The position numbers and the translations under genes are program-made. From a virus, in UHGV virus genome UHGV-0120925: 30,012 bases of DNA, one strand, 5' to 3'. This document shows, piece after piece, positions 1 through 29,974 of the stretch; position 1 is the stretch's first letter; every line of letters begins with the position of its first letter. Below the pieces are notes generated by a model. That model saw only the letters and a list, made by a program, of their open reading frames with translations, was not told the origin of the DNA and searched no databases.

Positions 1-38
1 GTAGCGGCAGGTGTCTATGAACACGTTTCAGTGAAACC

Positions 39-55
39 ATTTAAGAAAGTGTTCT
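39..55. repeat. Left copy of 17-bp perfect direct repeat ATTTAAGAAAGTGTTCT; candidate att core
   Basis: Identical 17-mer at 29958..29974; the two copies bracket the invertase end and the integrase end. A second shorter similarity (TTAAAGGGCAC at 118..128 vs TTAAGGGCAC near 29993) lies just inside/outside. Confidence 0.4.
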
Positions 56-121
56 AATTTATTAGAATTTTGCACTTAAATCAAAAAGTTACTGACAATT
101 CAACCACCAATCAATAAATTA

Positions 122-156
122 AAGGGCACATTAAAGTACACAATATTTGTGCCCTT
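122..156. terminator. Hairpin with perfect 9-bp inverted repeat (AAGGGCACA / TGTGCCCTT) and 17-nt loop, downstream of the invertase gene; possibly bidirectional
   Basis: Stem 122..130 pairs with 148..156; T-rich run follows on the plus strand and an AT-rich run on the minus strand. Loop contains GTACACA, the motif repeated next to int. Confidence 0.4.
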
Positions 157-175
157 CTCTGTTTCTTTCCCGTTA

Positions 176-724
176 TCAGCTAGCTGGAAACTTTTTATAC
201 AGAGTTGAGAGCCCTACTCCATACGTTTTTGATACGCTTTGTCGTGATTCACCGGTTGCCATCCGCTCCCCCATTTCCCGCCATTGCTCATCCGTGAACT
301 TAGGCCTGCGACCACCAACTCGCCATTTTGCCCTGGCTACGGCCAGCCCTGCTAAGGTACGTTCGCTATTAAGATCAGATTCATATTGTGCTGCGGAAAG
401 GATGTTACGAAAGTTATAGCGGCCGCTGGCTGTTTTGAGATCCACGCCATCGGTAATACTGCGGAAGTTGATACCCTTTTCCTGTAACTGCTGGAACATC
501 AACAGCGCATGCAGAACGTTGCGGCCTATCCTGTCCAGCTTCCAGACCACCAGTTCATCCCCCGGCTGCATAGTGGTGATCAGCCGCTTCAGTACCGGAC
601 GATTAGATTTTCTCCCGCTTGCATGCTCTTCAAAAATGTGATCACATCCTGATAACTCAAGGGCAGAGCGCTGAAGTTCAGTATCCTGATGGTTTGTAGA
701 TACTCGGGCATAGCCGTAAATCAT
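176..724 (-). CDS. Serine recombinase, DNA invertase of the Hin/Gin/Cin/Pin family
   Basis: Translation from ATG 724 reads MIYGYARVSTNHQD...LVVWKLDRIGR...ERTLAGLAVARA...GVGLSTLYKKFPAS, matching the N-terminal catalytic serine region and C-terminal HTH of Hin/Pin. RBS AGGAGA upstream. The longer track ORF from 769 is an upstream extension. Confidence 0.92.
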   Translation of the reverse strand: MIYGYARVSTNHQDTELQRSALELSGCDHIFEEHASGRKSNRPVLKRLITTMQPGDELVVWKLDRIGRNVLHALLMFQQLQEKGINFRSITDGVDLKTASGRYNFRNILSAAQYESDLNSERTLAGLAVARAKWRVGGRRPKFTDEQWREMGERMATGESRQSVSKTYGVGLSTLYKKFPAS

Positions 725-779
725 GGGATTTCTCCTGTTATGAAAACAGGAGAAACGGCGAAGCATCACCAGATTTTTG

Positions 780-1586
780 ATGGTTATAAAAAAGGTCGGT
801 TTGGGAAGTGCAGCTATTCTTGATTCTGGGGCAGGACTGAATCAGGTGCTTACATCAACGAATGATGGCACTAAAAGTTTTGGGTTAGGAGCAACGTATC
901 CATCTGTCAGCACTAATGGCCAAGTGGCTACAGATTCAACGGGGTTTTACAGACAAAATAATACAACGGGCTCCAATTTCTTTGGGCATTGGGGGGCTGG
1001 GGTTGGGATTATGTATAGCTCCCCAACTAAATTTAATATTTTCGTCAGGCAAGATGGCAAAATTTATTTCAATAAAGTTTCATCTGGATCAGAAGACTGG
1101 AGAGCTATAGCCAAGACAACACTTAACACGACTGTCGATAGCAATGGTTTCCTTAAAACGGCCTCACCCGTCGTTAAGATTTTCAGCAGCGGTAGATGTG
1201 AAACTAATGAAGAATCGGAAGGTTGTACTGTAACTCGCATGAAAACTGGAGAGTATCTGATCGAGGGCTGCATGGGAATGAACTCAGATGCTGCCTGGGG
1301 AGGTGTTGATGGTGGGTTTGTTATCCCTAAAGATCGCAATGGGCAGGCATTAATATGGCTTGACTACGAGGTAAATGCCGACGGGTCAGTGCTCGTGAAA
1401 ACATTCCACCGGGAATACCCGACAGCACCGATATTTGCGAGGAACTCACGGGAAGGTTTAGTAGATGGTGAACCGGCCGATATTCCGGCCGATCAGTTTG
1501 TCAGTGTCCGGGTAGAGATGCCGCAAAACAGTATCTGGAATCAGCGTGTGGCTATGGATGAAGTTCCTGATTTATCCGCTGATTAA
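780..1586 (+). CDS. Alternative tail-fibre C-terminal cassette, silent in this orientation
   Basis: No RBS before ATG 780. Begins VIKKVGLGS, paralleling ARKNLGLGD in the expressed fibre; C-terminus FVSVRVEMPQNSIWNQR parallels SWIDVRLDMPDDSAFNQR. Converges on and overlaps the expressed cassette by 35 bp. Confidence 0.7.
   Translation: MVIKKVGLGSAAILDSGAGLNQVLTSTNDGTKSFGLGATYPSVSTNGQVATDSTGFYRQNNTTGSNFFGHWGAGVGIMYSSPTKFNIFVRQDGKIYFNKVSSGSEDWRAIAKTTLNTTVDSNGFLKTASPVVKIFSSGRCETNEESEGCTVTRMKTGEYLIEGCMGMNSDAAWGGVDGGFVIPKDRNGQALIWLDYEVNADGSVLVKTFHREYPTAPIFARNSREGLVDGEPADIPADQFVSVRVEMPQNSIWNQRVAMDEVPDLSAD
784..809. repeat. Inversion crossover site 1 (hix/gix-like), adjacent to the invertase gene
   Basis: Core AAAAAGG-TC-GGTTTGGGA is an imperfect inverted copy of the site at 2342..2367 (15 of 18 core positions identical). 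Lies at the first codons of the silent cassette. Confidence 0.6.
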
Positions 1587-2829
1587 AGGCAGAATCATCT
1601 GGCATATCCAGGCGAACATCGATCCAACTGTTCACCGGCACGTCCATCGGTTCCCCTTTCGTTTTGACGATCTCCACGCCATCGCTCAGCATGTATTTCT
1701 GTTTAAACAAGCGGATAGTCAGTCCGCAGCTTTCAGTCTGCTCCGCTTCAACAACACCCATCTCGCCCATGCCGCCAGGGTCCATTGGCGGCAGTATCTG
1801 CCATCCCTCAGAAGCCAGGCCTGCCGAACCGGCGAGCACGTAAACACCGACGTCGAGACGAAAAAGAGTTATTCCCTCCGCCTCAGAGTTCGCCGTTCCA
1901 CAGCCACACCAGGAGAAACCATCCTCTGCAACATCAGCGCGTTCCGTTTCTTCCCGGCTTTTGACAATACGGGCCACTGGTGATGCTGCTTTAAGCGTAC
2001 CATCGGAGGATTTTGTTGTATTAGCAGTTGTATATAATTCTGCTGCAGCCCAGGCGTTAGGGTTCGTAGAGTGTCGACATCGGATGATAGCTCTTGGTGA
2101 CTCGGCGTATGCGTTCAAAATAAACTGACCGCCGACTGCCCCGCCACCTTTAATATTTAATCCGACCTGCCACTGACCCGGGAATACTCCTCCGCCGGAA
2201 GAATTCCAGTAACCGAAACCGGTTGTTTCATTGCCTCCCAGCGGAACCACTGTACTCGCACCATTAAGCGTAATACCCAGCCCGAAAGCACCAACTCCCA
2301 TCACATCATTGCTGCCTGCACCTACACTCCTGGTCGCACTGTCTCCTAAACCGAGGTTTTTGCGAGCGTCTTCTGCCTTCGTTGCCCCGGTCCCGCCGTC
2401 AGCGATTGCAAGCGCACCATTGCTCCCTTTCTGCGCAAGTTTACCGATGCCTGGGATGGTTACGGCGGTGCCGTTGATGGTAACTGTGATGCTTTGGTTT
2501 GCTGAGGTGGTGGCGAACGTCTCCCACGCGCCAATATTCTCGTCATACTCCTTGATAAGCTGCGACATGGCCTGCGCCAGCCCATCAACCGAGATATTGT
2601 CTGATACCAGAATGCCGTACTTCTGGCCGCTCAGCGCCGGAGAAGCTGCAGGCGTTACCGTCATTGACGTGGCGCTATTCACGGATGAAATCTGGAACAT
2701 CTGAACCGGGTTAGACATGACAATAATCGTCTGGCCAGCGCGAACCTGGCTGGCCGGTGCAGTCCAGTTTGTACCGGAGCCGGTTGCGGTATTTCCGTTA
2801 ATAGAGATAGTTCCGGTGCTATAAATCAT
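1552..2829 (-). CDS. Side tail-fibre protein: constant N-terminal part (2355..2829) fused to the currently expressed variable cassette
   Basis: RBS TAGGAG before ATG 2829. GGTGATKAEDARKNLGLG motif is typical of phage tail fibres. Crossover site falls in codons KNLGLG. Confidence 0.85.
   Translation of the reverse strand: MIYSTGTISINGNTATGSGTNWTAPASQVRAGQTIIVMSNPVQMFQISSVNSATSMTVTPAASPALSGQKYGILVSDNISVDGLAQAMSQLIKEYDENIGAWETFATTSANQSITVTINGTAVTIPGIGKLAQKGSNGALAIADGGTGATKAEDARKNLGLGDSATRSVGAGSNDVMGVGAFGLGITLNGASTVVPLGGNETTGFGYWNSSGGGVFPGQWQVGLNIKGGGAVGGQFILNAYAESPRAIIRCRHSTNPNAWAAAELYTTANTTKSSDGTLKAASPVARIVKSREETERADVAEDGFSWCGCGTANSEAEGITLFRLDVGVYVLAGSAGLASEGWQILPPMDPGGMGEMGVVEAEQTESCGLTIRLFKQKYMLSDGVEIVKTKGEPMDVPVNSWIDVRLDMPDDSAFNQRINQELHP
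2342..2367. repeat. Inversion crossover site 2 (hix/gix-like) inside the tail-fibre gene
   Basis: TCTCCTAAACC-GA-GGTTTTTGCGAG has a palindromic core AAACC-GA-GGTTT resembling gix/hix sites. Inverted relative to site 1. Confidence 0.65.
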
Positions 2830-2909
2830 AACAACTCCTAAATTTAGACAACATGAAGCCCGGAGAGGTATATAACCCTCACCAGAAATAATTTCTGAAT
2901 TGGTTTTTA

Positions 2910-3209
2910 ATACATGTTGGGCAACGCCAGTGTTGGCATAGCTATAGTTGTATCAAATGCCATTGACCACCCACCCAAATAATAATTGCCGACTACTTTA
3001 TTCCTTTCTGCTCTGACATTCCCACCTGTCATTACAATTCCTTTATACCTAATATTTCCGTAACCACCAACGTGTCGACAGTTAGCCCCGGTATAAACAA
3101 TCTGGCAAAATTCATCACCAATATTCAGGTTCGCATTGGCGATATTTATTGTCCCATCAAAAATGAATGGCTTCGTGCAAGTAAGAAGACGTTTGCGTTG
3201 ACGATTGGT
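2910..3209 (-). pseudogene. Start-less open frame of 100 codons in AT-rich DNA; possible decayed gene remnant between J and the tail fibre
   Basis: Hand translation of the minus strand is stop-free from 3209 to 2910 (...PFIFDGTINIANANLNIGDEF...GNYYLGGWSMAFDTT...), with the first ATG only at codon 60. Confidence 0.2.
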
Positions 3210-3334
3210 TTATTCAATCCATCAACTAAAATACCATGTAAACGAATTGCCATAACATTTCCAACTTTATTTTACTTACTCAACACAACAAGTATATTAA
3301 AATTGAACCTTGTCAACAACACAAAGGAGTCCCA

Positions 3335-3565
3335 ATGAAACTCGCTCTAATTATGCTGCCATTATGTCTGTCCCTCACTGCATGTGGTAGTGGCCTGAAT
3401 ACCGGTAAACCGAATTCCGGCGTTATCCCAAAACCCTTGGATTGGGATAACGGTTCTTTAATTTATGATACCGAAAAGCTTCCAATGACTGGGCAATGGT
3501 GCCATGAGATTGATCATGAATACCGACGAATTGGTTCACCTTCAAACTGTGTAGCTAACTACTAA
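3335..3565 (+). CDS. Small secreted lipoprotein (moron), predicted outer-membrane localised
   Basis: MKLALIMLPLCLSLTAC has a signal peptide and lipobox L-T-A-C, with Gly at +2. RBS AAGGAG, AT-rich upstream region, opposite strand to the flanking tail genes, terminator immediately downstream. Confidence 0.75.
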   Translation: MKLALIMLPLCLSLTACGSGLNTGKPNSGVIPKPLDWDNGSLIYDTEKLPMTGQWCHEIDHEYRRIGSPSNCVANY

Positions 3566-3571
3566 AAGAAA

Positions 3572-3598
3572 CCCCCCGCGCTAAGCGTGGTTGTTTTT
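3572..3598. terminator. Rho-independent terminator hairpin shared by the lipoprotein gene (plus) and J (minus)
   Basis: CCGCGC-TAA-GCGTGG stem (one G-U pair) followed by TTGTTTTT on the plus strand; the complement gives a U-rich tail after the J stop. Confidence 0.55.
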
Positions 3599-6500
3599 AT
3601 CCTGAGAATGAACCAGAACCGCGCGACACAATGACGGTCGGTGAATTTATATAAGCCCCCATACTATTTTGAGCGGATACCTTAATTTTAACTGTAACGG
3701 CACTACTGGTTACAGGTGATGAGTGCATTACAAGACGCTCGTTGCCGTCTATAGAAAGTTTTTTTTCTGAACCGTCAATGTTTATCGTGCAGCCACCAAA
3801 ACCTTTAACGTTTGCCATAACGCAGATATGTCTTCTATGTGCTGCACTTGATGTGTCATTGTATGTAATTGTTTTTTCGAGTACGCCATCATTTAACCTG
3901 CTAACGTCAGATCCTGTGTACATATTCGCAACGTCTCCCACAAAACTGGTAGCTTCCACAGTACCCGTGAATTTACCTCTTGTTGCTTGTATCTCACCAG
4001 TAAAGCTACCGCCACTAGCATATACTACACCTCTGACGGTCACATTGTTGAATTCAGCATCTCCAGCTTTATTCAACTTCCAACCAGCAGAACCAGCTGC
4101 ATAGTTGTTGGACTGGATATAGTTGCCGATTTTGGCGTTCTCAATGGTGCCGTCCTGGATGAAGCTGGCCCGGATGAATGTCTGCCCGTTCTGGATCACG
4201 AACGGCAAAGCTACGCCGTTACCGGCAGCTGTCGTGACTGCGAAGCGGTCAGCCAGGAAGATGACCTGTGACTGCATGCCGGACGGCGTATTCTCCACGC
4301 CGATCCCCATCCCTGCGGCGTAATACTGACCATTGCTGGAGACACCAACCTTGATGCTGTACATCGCCTTCAGATCACCGTTAACGTTCGCTATGGCCTC
4401 AGCGTTGGTGGTGATCGCAGAAGTATGTCCATTTACGGTCGCCGTGATGCTGTTTACCTGCGTGGCCATAGCCTGCTGGTAATCCGAAAACGTCTGGTTC
4501 AGGCTGTTGATGGAAGCCTTATTGCCGTTCACGTCAGTCTGCAAACTCAGCAGCGAACGCGCCGTTGCCTCCTTCTCGTTGACGATCACCTCATCAATGC
4601 GGTCCAGCTGCGCGCTGTTACCGGCGACGGATGCAGACAGCGTTTTGCGCGCCGCCACCTGCGCCAGGTTGCCCTGAATAATCGCGATGGCAGAGTTCTT
4701 CACTCCTCCCGTCATACCGTCCACAGACACGCTGATGTTATCGATGCGCTGGCCCAGCGCGGTATCAGCCGTCGCCACTGTCTGCTCAAGCTTGCTCAGA
4801 GAAGAAGACACATCTCCGACCGTGCTCGACAGGTTTGTAACGCTGGTCTGAACCTTCCCGATATCCTGGGCGTTTTTGGCGATATCTTTCGCTTGCTGCT
4901 CCAGCTCGTCGGCATGGTTTTTGATTTCGTCAGCCATGCCAGCAATTTTTTCATTGCTGTCCACTGCGCTCTCAATCAGATCTTTAAACGTATCGGAGTC
5001 TTTAATTTCCTCCAGAATCACATCTGTGATATCGGAAACATCGATGCTGGCCTGTCCTCGCACCCATTCTGTGTACCCTGATTCGTTGCCGCTGCGGTCC
5101 ACCAGCTGCGCGCGGTACCAGAAAATCTGCCCAGCCTTTAATCCCATCTGCTGATATTTACGCTGTGGGTATGGCACATCGGCCAGCAATATCGCATCAC
5201 CATCAGTACCGGTCAGGCTGTACTGAATTTCCGTCTTCAGCGTGTCGTCGGTATTCGCCGGGAATCCCCAGTTCAGCTCGATGCCGAAAACCACATTTTC
5301 AGAAGCGATGAAGCCAACCGGTTTCGGCGGATTGCCCACTTTACCCGTAAGATTTACTTCTGATGATGTCGCCCATACTGATGAAACGTCGCTGGCGTTC
5401 ACCGCCCTGACACGGACCAGATAGCGACCCGAGTAGATACCCTGCACTTCAAAGCCGAGAGAAGACGTTCGGGGCACACTAATCCAGTTGCCGCTGTCAC
5501 GCCGCCATTCCGCCTCGTACGCAACTGCACCCTGAACAGAATCCCAGGCAACGCGCATAGTGGTAATCGCAATGTTCTGGTTAACCGTAGAGTAACTGTC
5601 TACGACAATATTTCCTGGGGGAGCCTGAACCCCCGGTGGAATGACACTGACTGGCCGCTCGTCCAGTCTTGCGCCGGTATCAACAGCGGAATAGATATCA
5701 GGGTTGTAAGTCGTCCCGGTGACCTCGAAAGTACCGTCGTTGTTGTCCCGCGTTCCCGTAACACGGAAAAGCGCTATAAACAGATCGTCAGAGTCCACAC
5801 CCCAGTTACATTCAGCCTCCGGCGTTTCGCTGTAGGGTGTGGTGACAGTGACTGTGTTTCCGTTAACGGCCTGGACGGTTCTGGCCTGAGCTGTGCCTGA
5901 CGGAAGATTCAAAAACAGCCTGTTACCGGCTTTCACATCAGCAGCGCGATCGAGGGTTATGTTGCGGCCGTTAACCGCACTCACCCTGCCGCCGATAGTT
6001 CTTCCGGCCAGCTCGTTAGCAGCCACGCCGATCACCTCACCAACAGGGGGGACGTCCATGCCTGTGCTGAAGGTCACCACCTCGCCGATACCGTTGGTAA
6101 GCAGCGCCCAGCGCCCCCGCCGGTTTGCCTCTGACTGCCTGGTGCAGCCGATCGCAGTCATTTCGAGCTGACGATAATCGAAACGCATGGCCAGATCGCT
6201 ATCGTAAACAGGCTCAGGCGTATCTTTGTAGTGGTTGGCAGGGTCTGACCAGTTCACCAGCGCGGCAGTGTTTCGGGTGGTTTCACTCGGGTCCGCAAAG
6301 GTAAATTTACCCTCAACTACGCTGGCGTGGTTATAGATATGCCACACATCGCGGGGCATATCAGCCAGGACATACATCTTATTGTCACCCCAGTACGTCA
6401 TGCCGCGAAATATACCCGCCAGATCACGAAGTACGGTCCAGGCGTCATTACGGTCCTGGATATAAACGTTGCAACGAAAACGAGGCTCCGTCCCGCTGCC

Positions 6501-7493
6501 GCCCTTGCCGTCTGGTACCAGTTGATCGCAATACTGGGCGATGCGATAAAGTTCCCATTTGTCTATCTGAGTCGCATCGATTCTTTGACCCAGCCCGAAG
6601 CGCTCGTTCAGAATGATGTCGTAATAAATCCAGGCAGGGTTATCCGTCCACGCCCATTTAAATACGCCCTCCCATGTACCAGAATAAGTGCGGGTTTCGG
6701 GATCATAAGTATCAGGTACACGGATGATTCGCCCTTTCGGATTACACACAACCTGAGGAATGCCATTAGGGAACTGCTTTGCGTCAAACTCTACATACAG
6801 CAGCGCTGTGTTAACGTAGCGAAGTTTGGCGTCAATAATTTCAGTAACGGCCACAACGCGCATGGTGTCGACGATATTCACGCTCGTGGAATCCGGTGTG
6901 ATTCTGCGAACCCGCAACTGCCATCCAGTCGAGGCTTTCGGAAGATTGACGCGGTGACTGCGCTCATAAAGCGACGTGGTTTTGTCATCAACAGCACCGT
7001 TAACCACCGTTTCATACGGCCCGCCATCGACCGACAGATCGATAGCATACTCAACGCGGGTGCCGACTTTATCGCCGTTGTTTTTCTGGAGTAAAAGAGT
7101 TGGCCATCCCAGGCGAATTCGCAGCGCAGAGAGCTGCGTGTTGGATACCGCGCGCACGTACGGCACAGCCTGTTTCAGCTCATATGAAACCTGAAGTTCG
7201 TTTTCAATGCCCGGAAAGCCCTGAATGTAATCCTGGTCCTGAGTACCGGAACGGAACTCGTATTTTACATTATTGAAATTGTAACTTCCGTCGGCGTTCT
7301 GGAGAGGCGTGTATGAAGATGAGTCACCAAGGAAAATATTTTTACCATCAAGCCCACCGGCGAACTCCCCCTCCCCAAGAGCAATAAGCACTTTTGCCCT
7401 GGCAATGGACTGAATGCTGTCCGGTGCCTCAACAGGCGTTCGGGTCTGATTGCTGCCACCTTTGCCGCGGCCTTTGATGATTGTCGTCGTCAT
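3597..7493 (-). CDS. J: Central tail fibre / host specificity protein J
   Basis: 1298 aa. Strong similarity to lambda J in the region ...NTALLYVEFDAKQF...YSGTWEGVFKWAW...DKWELYRIAQYCDQLVPDG.... Position after I matches lambda order. Confidence 0.93.
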   Translation of the reverse strand: MTTTIIKGRGKGGSNQTRTPVEAPDSIQSIARAKVLIALGEGEFAGGLDGKNIFLGDSSSYTPLQNADGSYNFNNVKYEFRSGTQDQDYIQGFPGIENELQVSYELKQAVPYVRAVSNTQLSALRIRLGWPTLLLQKNNGDKVGTRVEYAIDLSVDGGPYETVVNGAVDDKTTSLYERSHRVNLPKASTGWQLRVRRITPDSTSVNIVDTMRVVAVTEIIDAKLRYVNTALLYVEFDAKQFPNGIPQVVCNPKGRIIRVPDTYDPETRTYSGTWEGVFKWAWTDNPAWIYYDIILNERFGLGQRIDATQIDKWELYRIAQYCDQLVPDGKGGSGTEPRFRCNVYIQDRNDAWTVLRDLAGIFRGMTYWGDNKMYVLADMPRDVWHIYNHASVVEGKFTFADPSETTRNTAALVNWSDPANHYKDTPEPVYDSDLAMRFDYRQLEMTAIGCTRQSEANRRGRWALLTNGIGEVVTFSTGMDVPPVGEVIGVAANELAGRTIGGRVSAVNGRNITLDRAADVKAGNRLFLNLPSGTAQARTVQAVNGNTVTVTTPYSETPEAECNWGVDSDDLFIALFRVTGTRDNNDGTFEVTGTTYNPDIYSAVDTGARLDERPVSVIPPGVQAPPGNIVVDSYSTVNQNIAITTMRVAWDSVQGAVAYEAEWRRDSGNWISVPRTSSLGFEVQGIYSGRYLVRVRAVNASDVSSVWATSSEVNLTGKVGNPPKPVGFIASENVVFGIELNWGFPANTDDTLKTEIQYSLTGTDGDAILLADVPYPQRKYQQMGLKAGQIFWYRAQLVDRSGNESGYTEWVRGQASIDVSDITDVILEEIKDSDTFKDLIESAVDSNEKIAGMADEIKNHADELEQQAKDIAKNAQDIGKVQTSVTNLSSTVGDVSSSLSKLEQTVATADTALGQRIDNISVSVDGMTGGVKNSAIAIIQGNLAQVAARKTLSASVAGNSAQLDRIDEVIVNEKEATARSLLSLQTDVNGNKASINSLNQTFSDYQQAMATQVNSITATVNGHTSAITTNAEAIANVNGDLKAMYSIKVGVSSNGQYYAAGMGIGVENTPSGMQSQVIFLADRFAVTTAAGNGVALPFVIQNGQTFIRASFIQDGTIENAKIGNYIQSNNYAAGSAGWKLNKAGDAEFNNVTVRGVVYASGGSFTGEIQATRGKFTGTVEATSFVGDVANMYTGSDVSRLNDGVLEKTITYNDTSSAAHRRHICVMANVKGFGGCTINIDGSEKKLSIDGNERLVMHSSPVTSSAVTVKIKVSAQNSMGAYINSPTVIVSRGSGSFSG

Positions 7494-21909: not shown

Positions 21910-22443
21910 AATCGAAAACTCCTATTAATCATCGGCTGTGGGACCCCAAAAAAAGTTTTCTAACCTGCGGCGATGTGAAGAAAGGCTAGGCGGCGGTCCT
22001 TTTGGCGCCCGGTTACAGGGATTTGACCTCCCCCTCCCCTCCACATCCGTTGATGGTAATCATTATCATTTGAAGCGTTCACGCCCTGTTTTCGAGCGGT
22101 GGCAAGGCCAGCACAGGCTTTCAAGGTTCGAATCATCATCGGTACACGTAAACGTGCTGTATCACCGGGTGCGATCCGGTCGGTGAGAGAGTATCCCCGC
22201 GCGAGAGCGAGAACGGCGTGAGAACGGGCAACACTGGCAGGGAGTTGGCGCTGACCAATACAGGGAATGTTATGGGATGTGGTGAAGGGTTCATGGACGG
22301 GAATATGTCGCACGTAAAGCGGCGAGGCCCGAGGAGCTATTGCCGAAGATAAGTAGGCCGAATCGGGTCGAAATGGGTCTCCCACCTACCACAGCACCAA
22401 AGCATTTCTCCCGCATCAGCGGGTAACTAAGTGGAGAGTAAGT
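21910..22443. promoter_or_regulatory. Non-coding divergent control region between the late (minus) and early-left (plus) operons; likely holds promoters and the packaging site
   Basis: About 530 bp with no RBS-supported ORF. GC-rich, with short direct repeats (GAGAACGG twice at 22207..22226). Exact promoter and cos/pac positions cannot be fixed from sequence alone. Confidence 0.4.
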
Positions 22444-23890: not shown

Positions 23891-24030
23891 GCGAAAGCCC
23901 ACCGAAGTGGGCCCGCCATGTCCGGCCTCACCGACCAAAGTTACACCGGAAACAACATTAAAACCAAAGTTAACCCAATGGGCGCTATCAATGGTCCGGG
24001 GATTCTAACACCCAAAAATGAGGATCTCAC

Positions 24031-29817: not shown

Positions 29818-29957
29818 AAGTTGCCCACTCAAAGCTACACGCAATGTAACACTAGTTCGCAGAGTGTTATGGTTTACATCCTTGAAAGCCTGCTGGATAA
29901 GGGTTTAGCGTAACAGAACGTTTTTACGCGGAATTGTTCGTAATATGCCAAATGACA

Positions 29958-29974
29958 ATTTAAGAAAGTGTTCT
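29958..29974. repeat. Right copy of the 17-bp perfect direct repeat; candidate att core
   Basis: Identical to 39..55. Located 130 bp beyond the integrase start. Confidence 0.4.

Follow-up and report, generated by a model that had tools for sequence, protein, structure and literature searches.

The window, that is, the whole 30,012-nt stretch of virus genome UHGV-0120925 that was analysed, contains a phi80-like prophage of a human-gut Escherichia (gut E. coli), with yciI as its insertion site. The att core at its left end differs by one mismatch from the annotated phi80 attP core, and an exact second copy is present at positions 29955-29971. Since phi80 att cores are located at both ends (36-52 and 29955-29971), the window represents a whole prophage of ~29.9 kb. 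In E. coli genomes, yciI lies directly to the left of the prophage end. The prophage has kept complete head, tail, terminase, and RecET genes and has lost its immunity, replication, and lysis genes. Only ~2 kb separates the small terminase subunit gene from recE; this stretch contains N and kil homologues, and no repressor, replication, Q, or lysis gene was found in it. An earlier sequence-only reading of this DNA had called the element defective, which agrees with the missing immunity, replication, and lysis genes, and the prophage is without the genes required for independent production and release of particles. The candidate tail fibre switch described here is located at the right end of the phi80-like prophage and comprises an invertase gene, two crossover sites, and two fibre cassettes (Table 1).

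Table 1. Features of the tail fibre switch region and the adjoining prophage end (window coordinates)
Feature	Position	Strand	Basis or remark
Prophage left end, phi80-type att core ACCATTTAAGAAAGTGT	36..52		Adjoins the 3' end of yciI
Serine DNA invertase, phi80 PinL type, 182 aa	176..724	-	Pfam Resolvase and HTH_7
Putative Fis-dependent enhancer stretch, invertase CDS nt 19-90	635..706	-	Position only
Left, invertase-proximal crossover site TTATAAAAAAGG TC GGTTTGGGAAGT	784..809		Core TC at 796-797
Invertible segment, 1,557 bp between core centres	797..2353		Bounded by the two sites
Silent cassette B, 262 codons and a stop codon, first residues G-L-G-S-A-A-I-L	798..1586	+	Pfam, PF25670 (2.6e-61)
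Expressed cassette A, fibre residues 160-425	1552..2352	-	Pfam, PF25670 tip (1.3e-28)
Right crossover site within the fibre gene GTCTCCTAAACC GA GGTTTTTGCGAG	2341..2366		Core GA at 2353-2354
Constant N-terminal side tail fibre part, residues 1-159, ending A-R-K-N-L	2353..2829	-	phrog_1591, tail fibre

The invertase ORF (182 aa from its ATG) contains a Resolvase domain (PF00239, 1.5e-36) and an HTH_7 domain (PF02796, 1.6e-9), and its residues 1 to 181 align with Mu Gin (PDB 3UJ3) with an E value of 1e-55, compared with 8.5e-22 for gamma-delta resolvase. These Pfam domains and the full-length Gin alignment support the earlier assignment of 176..724 to the Hin/Gin/Pin type, and the protein has the catalytic domain, the C-terminal HTH, and a length within the ~180 to 190 aa of small serine invertases. 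It shares 95% identity with phi80 PinL and 51 to 52% with Gin, Cin, and Fin. The catalytic Ser9 is present, with YARVSTNHQ aligning with YVRVSTNDQ of Gin, and S9, D64, R65, and R68 are the majority residues among 150 representatives. One conserved residue is altered: position 134 (codon at 323-325) is Trp in this copy, a private change. It is Gly in all seven aligned invertases, in all 13 members of the protein's own 90% cluster, and in 139 of 140 diverse relatives, a conservation comparable to that of the catalytic Ser9 (142 of 144). W134 aligns with G137 ('AKG') of gamma-delta resolvase, the last residue of an E helix that spans Y102 to G137 (PMC3575834), so Trp here replaces the conserved glycine that closes helix E ahead of the G-G-R minor-groove arm. 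G134W is no assembly error, since it is identical in at least four assemblies, and the invertase of this copy may no longer flip the segment. The putative enhancer was assigned by position, because the P1 record annotates an enhancer at nt 19-90 of the cin CDS; 635-706 aligns with that stretch, and many positions differ.

The two crossover sites are ~26 bp long, lie in inverted orientation, and share an identical central TC, the right site reading CTCGCAAAAACC TC GGTTTAGGAGAC as its reverse complement. The sequence-only reading had placed the left site correctly at 784..809 and the right site 1 nt off at 2342..2367, which is corrected here to 2341-2366; its estimate of a ~1.56-kb segment between inverted sites matches the 1,557 bp now defined. 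In a generic repeat search over 4 kb, the site pair (18 nt, 83%) ranked only 5th among 55 inverted pairs, and the inverted repeat alone is therefore not above chance. An alignment to known sites had been proposed along with the original coordinates, and when it was run against Mu gix and P1 cix, the cores matched gix; the right site shares the core AAACC TC GGTTTA of the annotated Mu record. The motif AAASSTCGGTTTRGGA, a pattern derived post hoc from the two sites, occurs twice in the 30 kb, both times at the sites, and had no match in 100 shuffles. The left site has a degenerate outer half (AAAAGG versus AAAACC), which matches a gix half-site poorly, and AAAGG-type halves are also present at internal sites of multi-cassette relatives. 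E. coli elements that carry PinL-type invertases (EC09) have exactly this outer half, and the sites of Enterobacter hormaechei elements and phage LLS have exactly this inner half. In many E. coli genomes and in HK97, similarity to the constant fibre part begins at 2342.

The fibre ORF (1552-2829, minus strand) encodes 425 aa and the opposing cassette ORF (777/780-1586, plus strand) 268 to 269 aa, and both carry PF25670. The cassettes converge with a 35-bp overlap of their 3' ends at 1552-1586, as had been read from the letters alone. The constant N-terminus is common to HK97 Stf and to the phi80 and mEpX fibres. The fibre with cassette A is 94.6% identical in amino acid sequence over its full length to that of E. 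coli ABWA45, and the distal part of cassette A has its homologue in the E. hormaechei L012 silent cassette. Cassette B has no promoter or ribosome-binding site of its own, and a promoter and terminator scan of positions 1-3700 yielded nothing exceeding shuffle expectation. It shares 98.7% nucleotide identity with the cassette expressed in fibre P0003 of E. hormaechei and 99.2% amino acid identity with the cassette part of P0148, and it matches the C-terminus of SU10 gp12 (E value, 6e-59). The dN/dS of cassette B is uninformative, with only 4 synonymous and 6 nonsynonymous differences.

The codons across the sites are AAA AAC CTC GGT TTA GGA (K N L G L G) in the active copy and AAA AAG GTC GGT TTG GGA (K K V G L G) in the silent copy, so the sequence-only reading was right that both sites fall in K-(N/K)-(L/V)-G-L-G codons, which are in a common reading-frame register. 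The reading frame is kept because both crossovers occur at the second and third bases of the Leu/Val codon. In silico, exchange at TC yields an open 421-aa fibre consisting of residues 1-159 and the 262 residues of cassette B, which agrees with the predicted in-frame fusion of the constant N-terminus to the silent cassette, and full-length homologues with exactly the predicted flipped junction exist. No tail fibre assembly gene (tfa) is present in the segment 797-2353, where the other ORFs are antisense and without Pfam or PHROG hits. This absence had been noticed before and is correct for the segment, but it is no peculiarity, as relatives with PF25670 tips, namely, LLS, mEpX1, and E. hormaechei prophages, are also without the gene. 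The absence of a tail fibre assembly gene is the rule for PF25670-type fibre tips, and none of the related elements examined has a chaperone gene adjacent to such tips. The missing chaperone genes account for the small size of the switch (1.56 kb) and for the tail-to-tail contact of its cassettes.

The E. hormaechei relatives carry the main evidence for inversion. Between loci L012 and L018, the flanks are 100% identical and the intervening segment (5471-7066) is inverted. Window positions 796-2039 are collinear with this two-orientation segment at 91.6%, and ~80% of the segment analysed here is present there. When the L012 fibre was flipped in silico at the TC core, the resulting 434-aa protein was identical to the public protein P0121, found on 12 contigs, and the unflipped form was found on ~24 contigs, which gives an orientation ratio of ~2:1 among assemblies. 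In addition, P0148, a full-length E. hormaechei fibre of 421 aa, is 96% identical to the predicted flipped fibre of this element, and the silent tip is thus expressed in E. hormaechei as part of a full-length fibre. The inversion mechanism that had been proposed for the locus is therefore backed by a sister element with both orientations and the same core exchange, comparative evidence that strongly supports it.

The orientation of the element itself is uniform. All eight contigs carrying it, as assembled, have a single orientation (8:0), and they are 100% identical; uniform orientation is weak evidence, because eight identical contigs may come from one clone. The exact flipped fibre of this element was absent among ~15 billion proteins. 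The flipped 29-nt junction was found in two JGI metagenome contigs, which turned out to be different elements (constant part 80% and cassette 68% identical). The flipped junction of the EC09 locus, which has G134 and TT-core sites, was absent in 5,426 complete E. coli genomes, a search that is uninformative since that cassette combination occurs in only one genome. Two independent records of phage mEpX1 are collinear and uninformative on the activity of the PinL clade; these two comparisons revealed no orientation polymorphism for elements with PinL-clade invertases. The invertase of this copy, a PinL-clade member, is only 51 to 52% identical to those of elements with demonstrated flipping. 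Contigs L010 and L011 start at window positions 719 and 767, respectively. These starts were considered as an assembly branch caused by mixed orientations: for k = 31, a contig beginning at 767 points to a branch at the C of the core (797), and inversion would diverge at 803. Divergence at 797 fits a co-occurring TT-core relative better, and the starts were not used as evidence.

Taken together, the locus is very probably a two-cassette inversion switch of the Gin/Pin family for the C-terminus of the side tail fibre, and it is most likely locked in the tip-A state because of W134 and the lost immunity-to-lysis block. By analogy with the invertase family, dimers would bind the two 26-bp gix-like sites in inverted orientation and synapse, normally helped by Fis at the enhancer in the 5' part of the invertase gene. 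Both duplexes would then be cut at the central TC with a 2-nt stagger, and one subunit pair would rotate by 180 degrees before religation of the DNA. Inversion would swap fibre residues 160-425 (tip A) for the 262 residues of tip B. The DNA substrate of the switch appears intact, and any residual flipping would be slow or would depend on another Pin/Gin-type invertase acting in trans. The host-range phase variation suggested by the sequence-only reading is doubtful for this copy in view of W134, the 8:0 orientation, the absence of the flipped fibre from the protein collection, and the loss of genes that autonomous particle production and release require.

Other explanations differ widely in probability. 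A fully active switch, in which Trp134 is tolerated, the segment flips with the low frequency typical of such switches, and clonal sampling plus consensus assembly account for the single orientation, is possible but not likely. The invertase retains all its catalytic residues and its HTH domain, both sites share the central TC needed for productive inversion, the silent cassette is uninterrupted over 269 codons and near-identical to copies expressed elsewhere, and the eight identical contigs are maybe not independent. However, position 134 is Gly in nearly all diverse relatives and in every close relative, and in the homologous structure this residue is the last of helix E, at the turn of the chain towards the minor-groove arm (PMC3575834). 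The E. hormaechei sister is found in both orientations at ~2:1, whereas the ratio here is 8:0. The intactness of the silent cassette is explicable by recent import rather than selection, since it is so similar to the Enterobacter copies (10 nt differences in 774). A more tentative suggestion, and a rather unlikely one, is that the element is a frozen hybrid, in which an Escherichia PinL-clade invertase was joined by imported Enterobacter-type (Fin/Gin-clade) cassettes and sites and locked by G134W, with the silent tip as a stored receptor-binding cassette and no longer an option for phase variation. The PinL-clade invertase shares only 50 to 52% identity with its counterparts in LLS, ABWA45, and E. 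hormaechei and is paired here with PF25670 cassettes that are usually accompanied by invertases of the Fin/Gin-like clade; the module is therefore a hybrid. If the frozen state were true, superinfecting phi80/HK97-like phages could capture the silent tip by homologous recombination, a foreign invertase could flip it in trans, and G134W would represent a naturally occurring separation-of-function mutation in the hinge of a serine invertase.

It is highly improbable that cassette B is an independent gene for a second fibre-associated protein. Gene callers do report a product of 268 aa, and the frame has a start codon (ATG) at 780, but no Shine-Dalgarno or promoter-like signal lies upstream, the callers disagree on the start (products of 104 or 268 aa), the product has no N-terminal attachment module, and in homologous cassettes G-L-G is the precise point of fusion to the constant part. 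Least credible of all is the absence of any switch, with the sites being two copies of the fibre motif A-R-x-N-L-G-L-G joined by mosaic recombination next to an unrelated recombinase. The inverted repeat is indeed short and unexceptional by rank, the same 29-nt junction sequence is also found in unrelated fibre genes, the motif is present twice in the SU10 gp12 fibre, and a weaker look-alike occurs at 873-891 in K-S-F-G-L-G codons. Against this, the arrangement of an invertase, an opposite cassette without promoter or start, and a site at each cassette start recurs in LLS, mEpX1, ABWA45, and E. hormaechei, is demonstrably inverted at exactly these cores in E. hormaechei, and has cores that match gix.

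As an inversion switch, the locus is another example of a well-understood strategy, the exchange of phage receptor-binding tips by site-specific inversion, and opens no new question. It does illustrate that comparative data alone, that is, identical flanks, an inverted segment, and a predicted flipped protein with an exact public match, can validate such switches without reads, and that a minimal switch with PF25670-type tips takes up ~1.5 kb and has no chaperone genes. Prophages of Escherichia and Enterobacter exchange PF25670 tips, and the crossover site forms the mosaic boundary. In addition, the private G134W, at one of the family's most conserved residues, makes this copy an inexpensive natural experiment on what the last glycine of helix E does.

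Invertible tail fibre segments include Mu G, P1 C, e14 P, and p15B Min, and the type of switch is already known from Mu G, P1 C, phage LLS, and Enterobacter phage FRphi. The invertase aligns with Mu Gin over its full length at 51% identity, and the Mu gix site (TTATCCAAAACC TC GGTTTACAGGAA) and the right site share their core. In Mu S, Q-N-L-G-L is read across gix in the identical frame, and P1 S has the same codon register. As in Mu G and P1 C, the invertase gene adjoins the segment on the strand of the fibre gene, and a constant N-terminus is combined with alternative C-termini. The segment is 1.56 kb long here, compared with ~3 kb in Mu and 4.2 kb in P1, and the Mu and P1 segments carry U/U' tail fibre assembly genes, whereas this one carries none. 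It also differs from Mu in having PF25670 tips instead of Mu S-type tips, a siphovirus side fibre instead of a myovirus fibre, a degenerate outer half of the left site, and Trp at the conserved Gly134.

A matching architecture was found among the tfa-less PF25670 switches compared here (phage LLS, mEpX1, E. coli ABWA45, and E. hormaechei prophages), whose sites read CTCGCxxAAACC TC GGTTT on the fibre side and xxTAxAAAxG TC GGTTT on the invertase side. The present locus has the traits of this group, namely, an HK97/phi80-type fibre N-terminus, convergent PF25670 tips, and matching sites. In phage LLS (PQ299149; Genome Res 2025), gene 22, gene 23, and the Fin invertase are accompanied by annotated IR-L and IR-R, and the paper noted the tfa-less architecture and proposed inversion (PMC12315714). 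LLS likewise has two convergent tfa-less cassettes with an adjacent serine invertase and a constant N-terminal part 86% identical at the DNA level, and its sites are CTCGCGCAAACC TC GGTTTGGGAAGT and ATCTATAAAACG TC GGTTTGGGAAAC. Its invertase belongs to the Fin/Gin-like clade (51% identical), its cassettes are only ~50% identical, and LLS is a viable phage, unlike the defective prophage analysed here. The tail fibre shufflon of FRphi, a possible counterpart in fibre family and tfa-less architecture that was compared here through its published description, has three cassettes (C1-C3). Long reads show mixed fibre isoforms that a gin deletion locks, and experiments in 2025-26 showed that the Gin-dependent locus alters infectivity (PMC13418256). 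The E. hormaechei elements L012, L018, and L019 share the collinear segment and the silent tip with the present element but their invertases are Gin/Fin-like and have Gly134, and three cassettes occur in some of them (L019). The pinL region of phi80 (JX871397) shares the integration site, the att core, the invertase (95%), and the fibre N-terminus. However, phi80 PinL is truncated at its C-terminus and is without the last 10 HTH residues, and the phi80 segment is degenerate, its pinL and fibre genes being separated by dinL and pseudogene fragments, whereas the present element has a full-length invertase and an intact two-cassette segment.

The fibre region of the window contains an invertase gene, an expressed fibre gene and, on the opposite strand, a silent cassette (see the table). 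The invertase aligns with Mu Gin (PDB 3UJ3) over its full length (E 1e-55), and both fibre ORFs, which overlap by 35 bp at their 3' ends, finish in a PF25670 ('phage tail protein C-terminal') domain. An earlier sequence-only reading proposed that two inverted sites bound a switchable segment here. Both sites were confirmed, with the right one shifted by one base. The pair ranked only 5th of 55 in a blind repeat search, so the repeat as such is unremarkable. The sites are convincing because the core AAACC TC GGTTTA of Mu gix (TTATCCAAAACC TC GGTTTACAGGAA) is also that of the right site (the gix and cix sequences compared were those annotated for Mu and P1 in their records); because the codon register is shared, with Q-N-L-G-L of Mu S across gix corresponding to K-N-L-G-L; and because the 16-nt motif common to the two sites, a pattern chosen post hoc, has no further occurrence in 30 kb and none in shuffles. 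Exchange in silico at the TC cores joins residues 1-159 to G-L-G-S-A-A-I-L... in an open 421-aa fibre, as expected from the in-frame fusion proposed earlier. A weaker look-alike within the silent cassette, at 873-891 (AAAAGTTTTGGGTTAGGAG, codons K-S-F-G-L-G), lacks the AAACC/GGTTT core, occurs in the expressed Enterobacter homologue too and is probably merely a repeated fibre peptide motif.

Features of the prophage and its fibre module
Feature	Position	Strand	Details
yciI 3' end	first ~60 bases
phi80 att core, left copy	36-52		one mismatch
Invertase	176-724	-	Resolvase and HTH_7 domains
Silent ORF	777-1586	opposite to fibre	269 codons; C-terminal PF25670
Left crossover site	784-809		TTATAAAAAAGG TC GGTTTGGGAAGT
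Expressed fibre ORF	1552-2829	-	425 aa; C-terminal PF25670
Right crossover site	2341-2366		reverse complement CTCGCAAAAACC TC GGTTTAGGAGAC
Native junctions (current orientation)			...CGCAAAAACCTCGGTTTAGGAGACAG and ATAAAAAAGGTCGGTTTGGGAAGTGC
Flipped junctions (inverted orientation)			CGCAAAAACCTCGGTTTGGGAAGTGC and ATAAAAAAGGTCGGTTTAGGAGACAG
DUF6453 reading frame	2907-3164	-	proper start codon absent
Promoter-like site, lipoprotein gene	3271-3298
Lipoprotein gene	3335-3565	+	76 aa; MKLALIMLPLCLSLTAC...; phrog_12984; opposite strand, between fibre gene and J
Terminator-like hairpin, lipoprotein gene	3576-3590
Tail genes, head genes, terminase	after J, up to 21.9 kb		in this order
Prophage deletion junction	21910-22143		small terminase gene, then N-kil-like sequence within about 230 bp
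N and kil homologues	~2 kb stretch past terminase		recE, recT and int follow
phi80 att core, right copy	29955-29971		exact

Inversion of this kind of module was found in relatives from Enterobacter hormaechei. Used as a query, the predicted flipped fibre retrieved full-length E. hormaechei fibres (P0001-P0003) with 91% identity, the loci of which are laid out like the window, with J, small genes, a 417-aa fibre, a convergent 267-aa PF25670 cassette and a resolvase-type gene. The expressed tip of this element is a homologue of the window's silent tip, and the window's expressed tip has its homologue in the distal half of the element's silent tip. Flipping the E. hormaechei element in silico at the TC cores yields a 434-aa protein identical to a public one, P0121, which has several NCBI accessions. 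In the loci encoding P0121 the flanks are 100% identical to those of the first set, and the segment between them (5471-7066) lies the other way round, with breakpoints that fall in the shared 14-bp core. One orientation is found on about 24 contigs and the other on 12.

Positions 796-2039 of the window, 80% of the segment, are collinear with the E. hormaechei invertible segment (91.6%) in the orientation of the prophage loci L018 and L019. Between the silent tip and the expressed Enterobacter copy, only 10 of 774 nucleotides differ, and P0148, a 421-aa E. hormaechei fibre, is 96% identical to the predicted flipped fibre overall and 99.2% in the cassette part. The constant fibre part is far more diverged than the silent tip (dS 0.72), and similarity to it in many E. 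coli genomes and HK97 begins at 2342. A near-identical cassette, a diverged constant part and this starting point make the crossover site a mosaic boundary too, the one at which phages exchange tips. Two loci, in E. coli ABWA45 (L004, NZ_CP022154, 2036-5256) and E. hormaechei (L019, 5001-8498), contain three cassettes and three sites, with two silent cassettes in tandem, and are shufflon-like multi-inversion versions of the module.

The window is a human-gut metagenome scaffold (ENA ERZ28577049, FENG16-1_SAMEA4378308 scaffold_934). Homologous elements in complete E. coli genomes have yciC-yciB-yciA-tonB-yciI directly on the left side, and the last 1.9 kb shares 99.3% identity with the phi80 xis-int region. 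With att cores at both ends, the window thus contains a whole phi80-like prophage of ~29.9 kb, which begins with the invertase, the fibre region, the lipoprotein gene and J (1,298 aa). The repressor, replication, Q and lysis genes, which form one block in phi80, were all absent from the window, so the element was correctly called defective. The sequence that follows the small terminase gene shares 99% identity with the phi80/HK225 N-kil region, and this joint indicates that the block from repressor through lysis is missing. Only Arg/Gly/Pro-rich ORFs, non-coding in appearance, occur at 21925-22400, and a putative isrB Hfq-binding sRNA (23892-23989, minus strand; Rfam full-model match, 38.2 bits against a gathering score of 35) lies directly upstream of recE. 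The lipoprotein gene, placed much as cor is in phi80 and mEpX1, may be a moron or a gene for superinfection exclusion. The DUF6453 frame is identical to a copy annotated in E. coli ABWA45. It matches a PHROG membrane protein of 332 aa over the final ~42 positions only, and hence has the look of a gene remnant.

The invertase is a member of the phi80 PinL clade: its identity to PinL is 95%, against no more than 50-52% to Gin, Cin, LLS Fin and the invertase of the E. hormaechei element. In its outer half, the left site has the same sequence as the site of E. coli elements that carry PinL-type invertases and have TT cores; the site's core and inner half are of the Enterobacter type, so the module is a hybrid. 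Compared with the common E. coli yciI-locus allele (EC09/ET729/HK225; L002, L003 and L026; window 1-806), changes in the invertase are clustered at residues 19-29, within the stretch equivalent by position to the P1 cin enhancer (635-706), and this clustering suggests allele exchange within the gene. Residue 134 is Trp (codon 323-325) through a single G-to-T substitution. Gly occupies this position in 7 of 7 aligned invertases, in all 13 members of the enzyme's own 90% cluster and in 139 of 140 occupied cells of an alignment of 150 representatives of 50%-identity clusters, on par with the catalytic Ser9. It aligns with G137 of gamma-delta resolvase, the last residue of the E-helix before the DNA-binding domain (PMC3575834). 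G134W recurs in at least four independent assemblies, each 100% identical to the window, and on these comparisons is a private substitution, with Gly in all close relatives.

The sequence-only reading was right about the kind of system, but ongoing host-range phase variation in the window copy is doubtful. All eight assembled contigs carrying the fibre have the window's orientation; the flipped fibre was absent from the protein collection searched, and a search with the flipped junction returned unrelated elements only. These observations are no proof of an inactive switch, as the contigs may be clonal, but together with G134W and the missing genes for immunity, replication and lysis they make phase variation the weakest part of that reading. 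Two short, independent contigs (L010 and L011, from ERZ27262196 and ERR2017791) begin a short way to the left of the left site, at window positions 719 and 767. Inversion was considered as the cause; with k=31, a start at 767 implies that the graph branches at base 797 (the second core base), which favours a co-occurring TT-core relative instead. Cross-reactivity within the Pin/Gin family is established, and the segment could still be flipped in trans if the cell contained another invertase of the Pin/Gin type.

A tail-fibre assembly gene is absent, as had been noted in contrast to Mu; the implied novelty does not hold, since this is already documented for the PF25670-tip fibre family. The same tfa-less layout occurs in phages mEpX1 and LLS; the GenBank record of the latter annotates IR-L, IR-R and a 'serine-type DNA invertase Fin', and Mu/P1-like tip switching has been proposed for it (PMC12315714). 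E. coli ABWA45, also tfa-less, has the expressed tip of the window and, in addition, two silent cassettes with a site each, in an element located at malI, not yciI, with a Fin-type invertase. HK97 has the same fibre N-terminus but a lambda-Stf-type tip and tfa, which indicates that tfa absence tracks the PF25670 tip, not the locus. In sequence, the tips match gp12 of SU10, the 'long tail fiber proximal protein', over its C-terminal third (E 6e-59), a part not resolved in the structure; a structure model and fold search gave weak phage-fibre-like matches only. In Enterobacter phage FRphi, a 2025-26 study using long reads found three fibre isoforms mixed, with gin deletion locking the isoforms and only one isoform infecting the host (PMC13418256).
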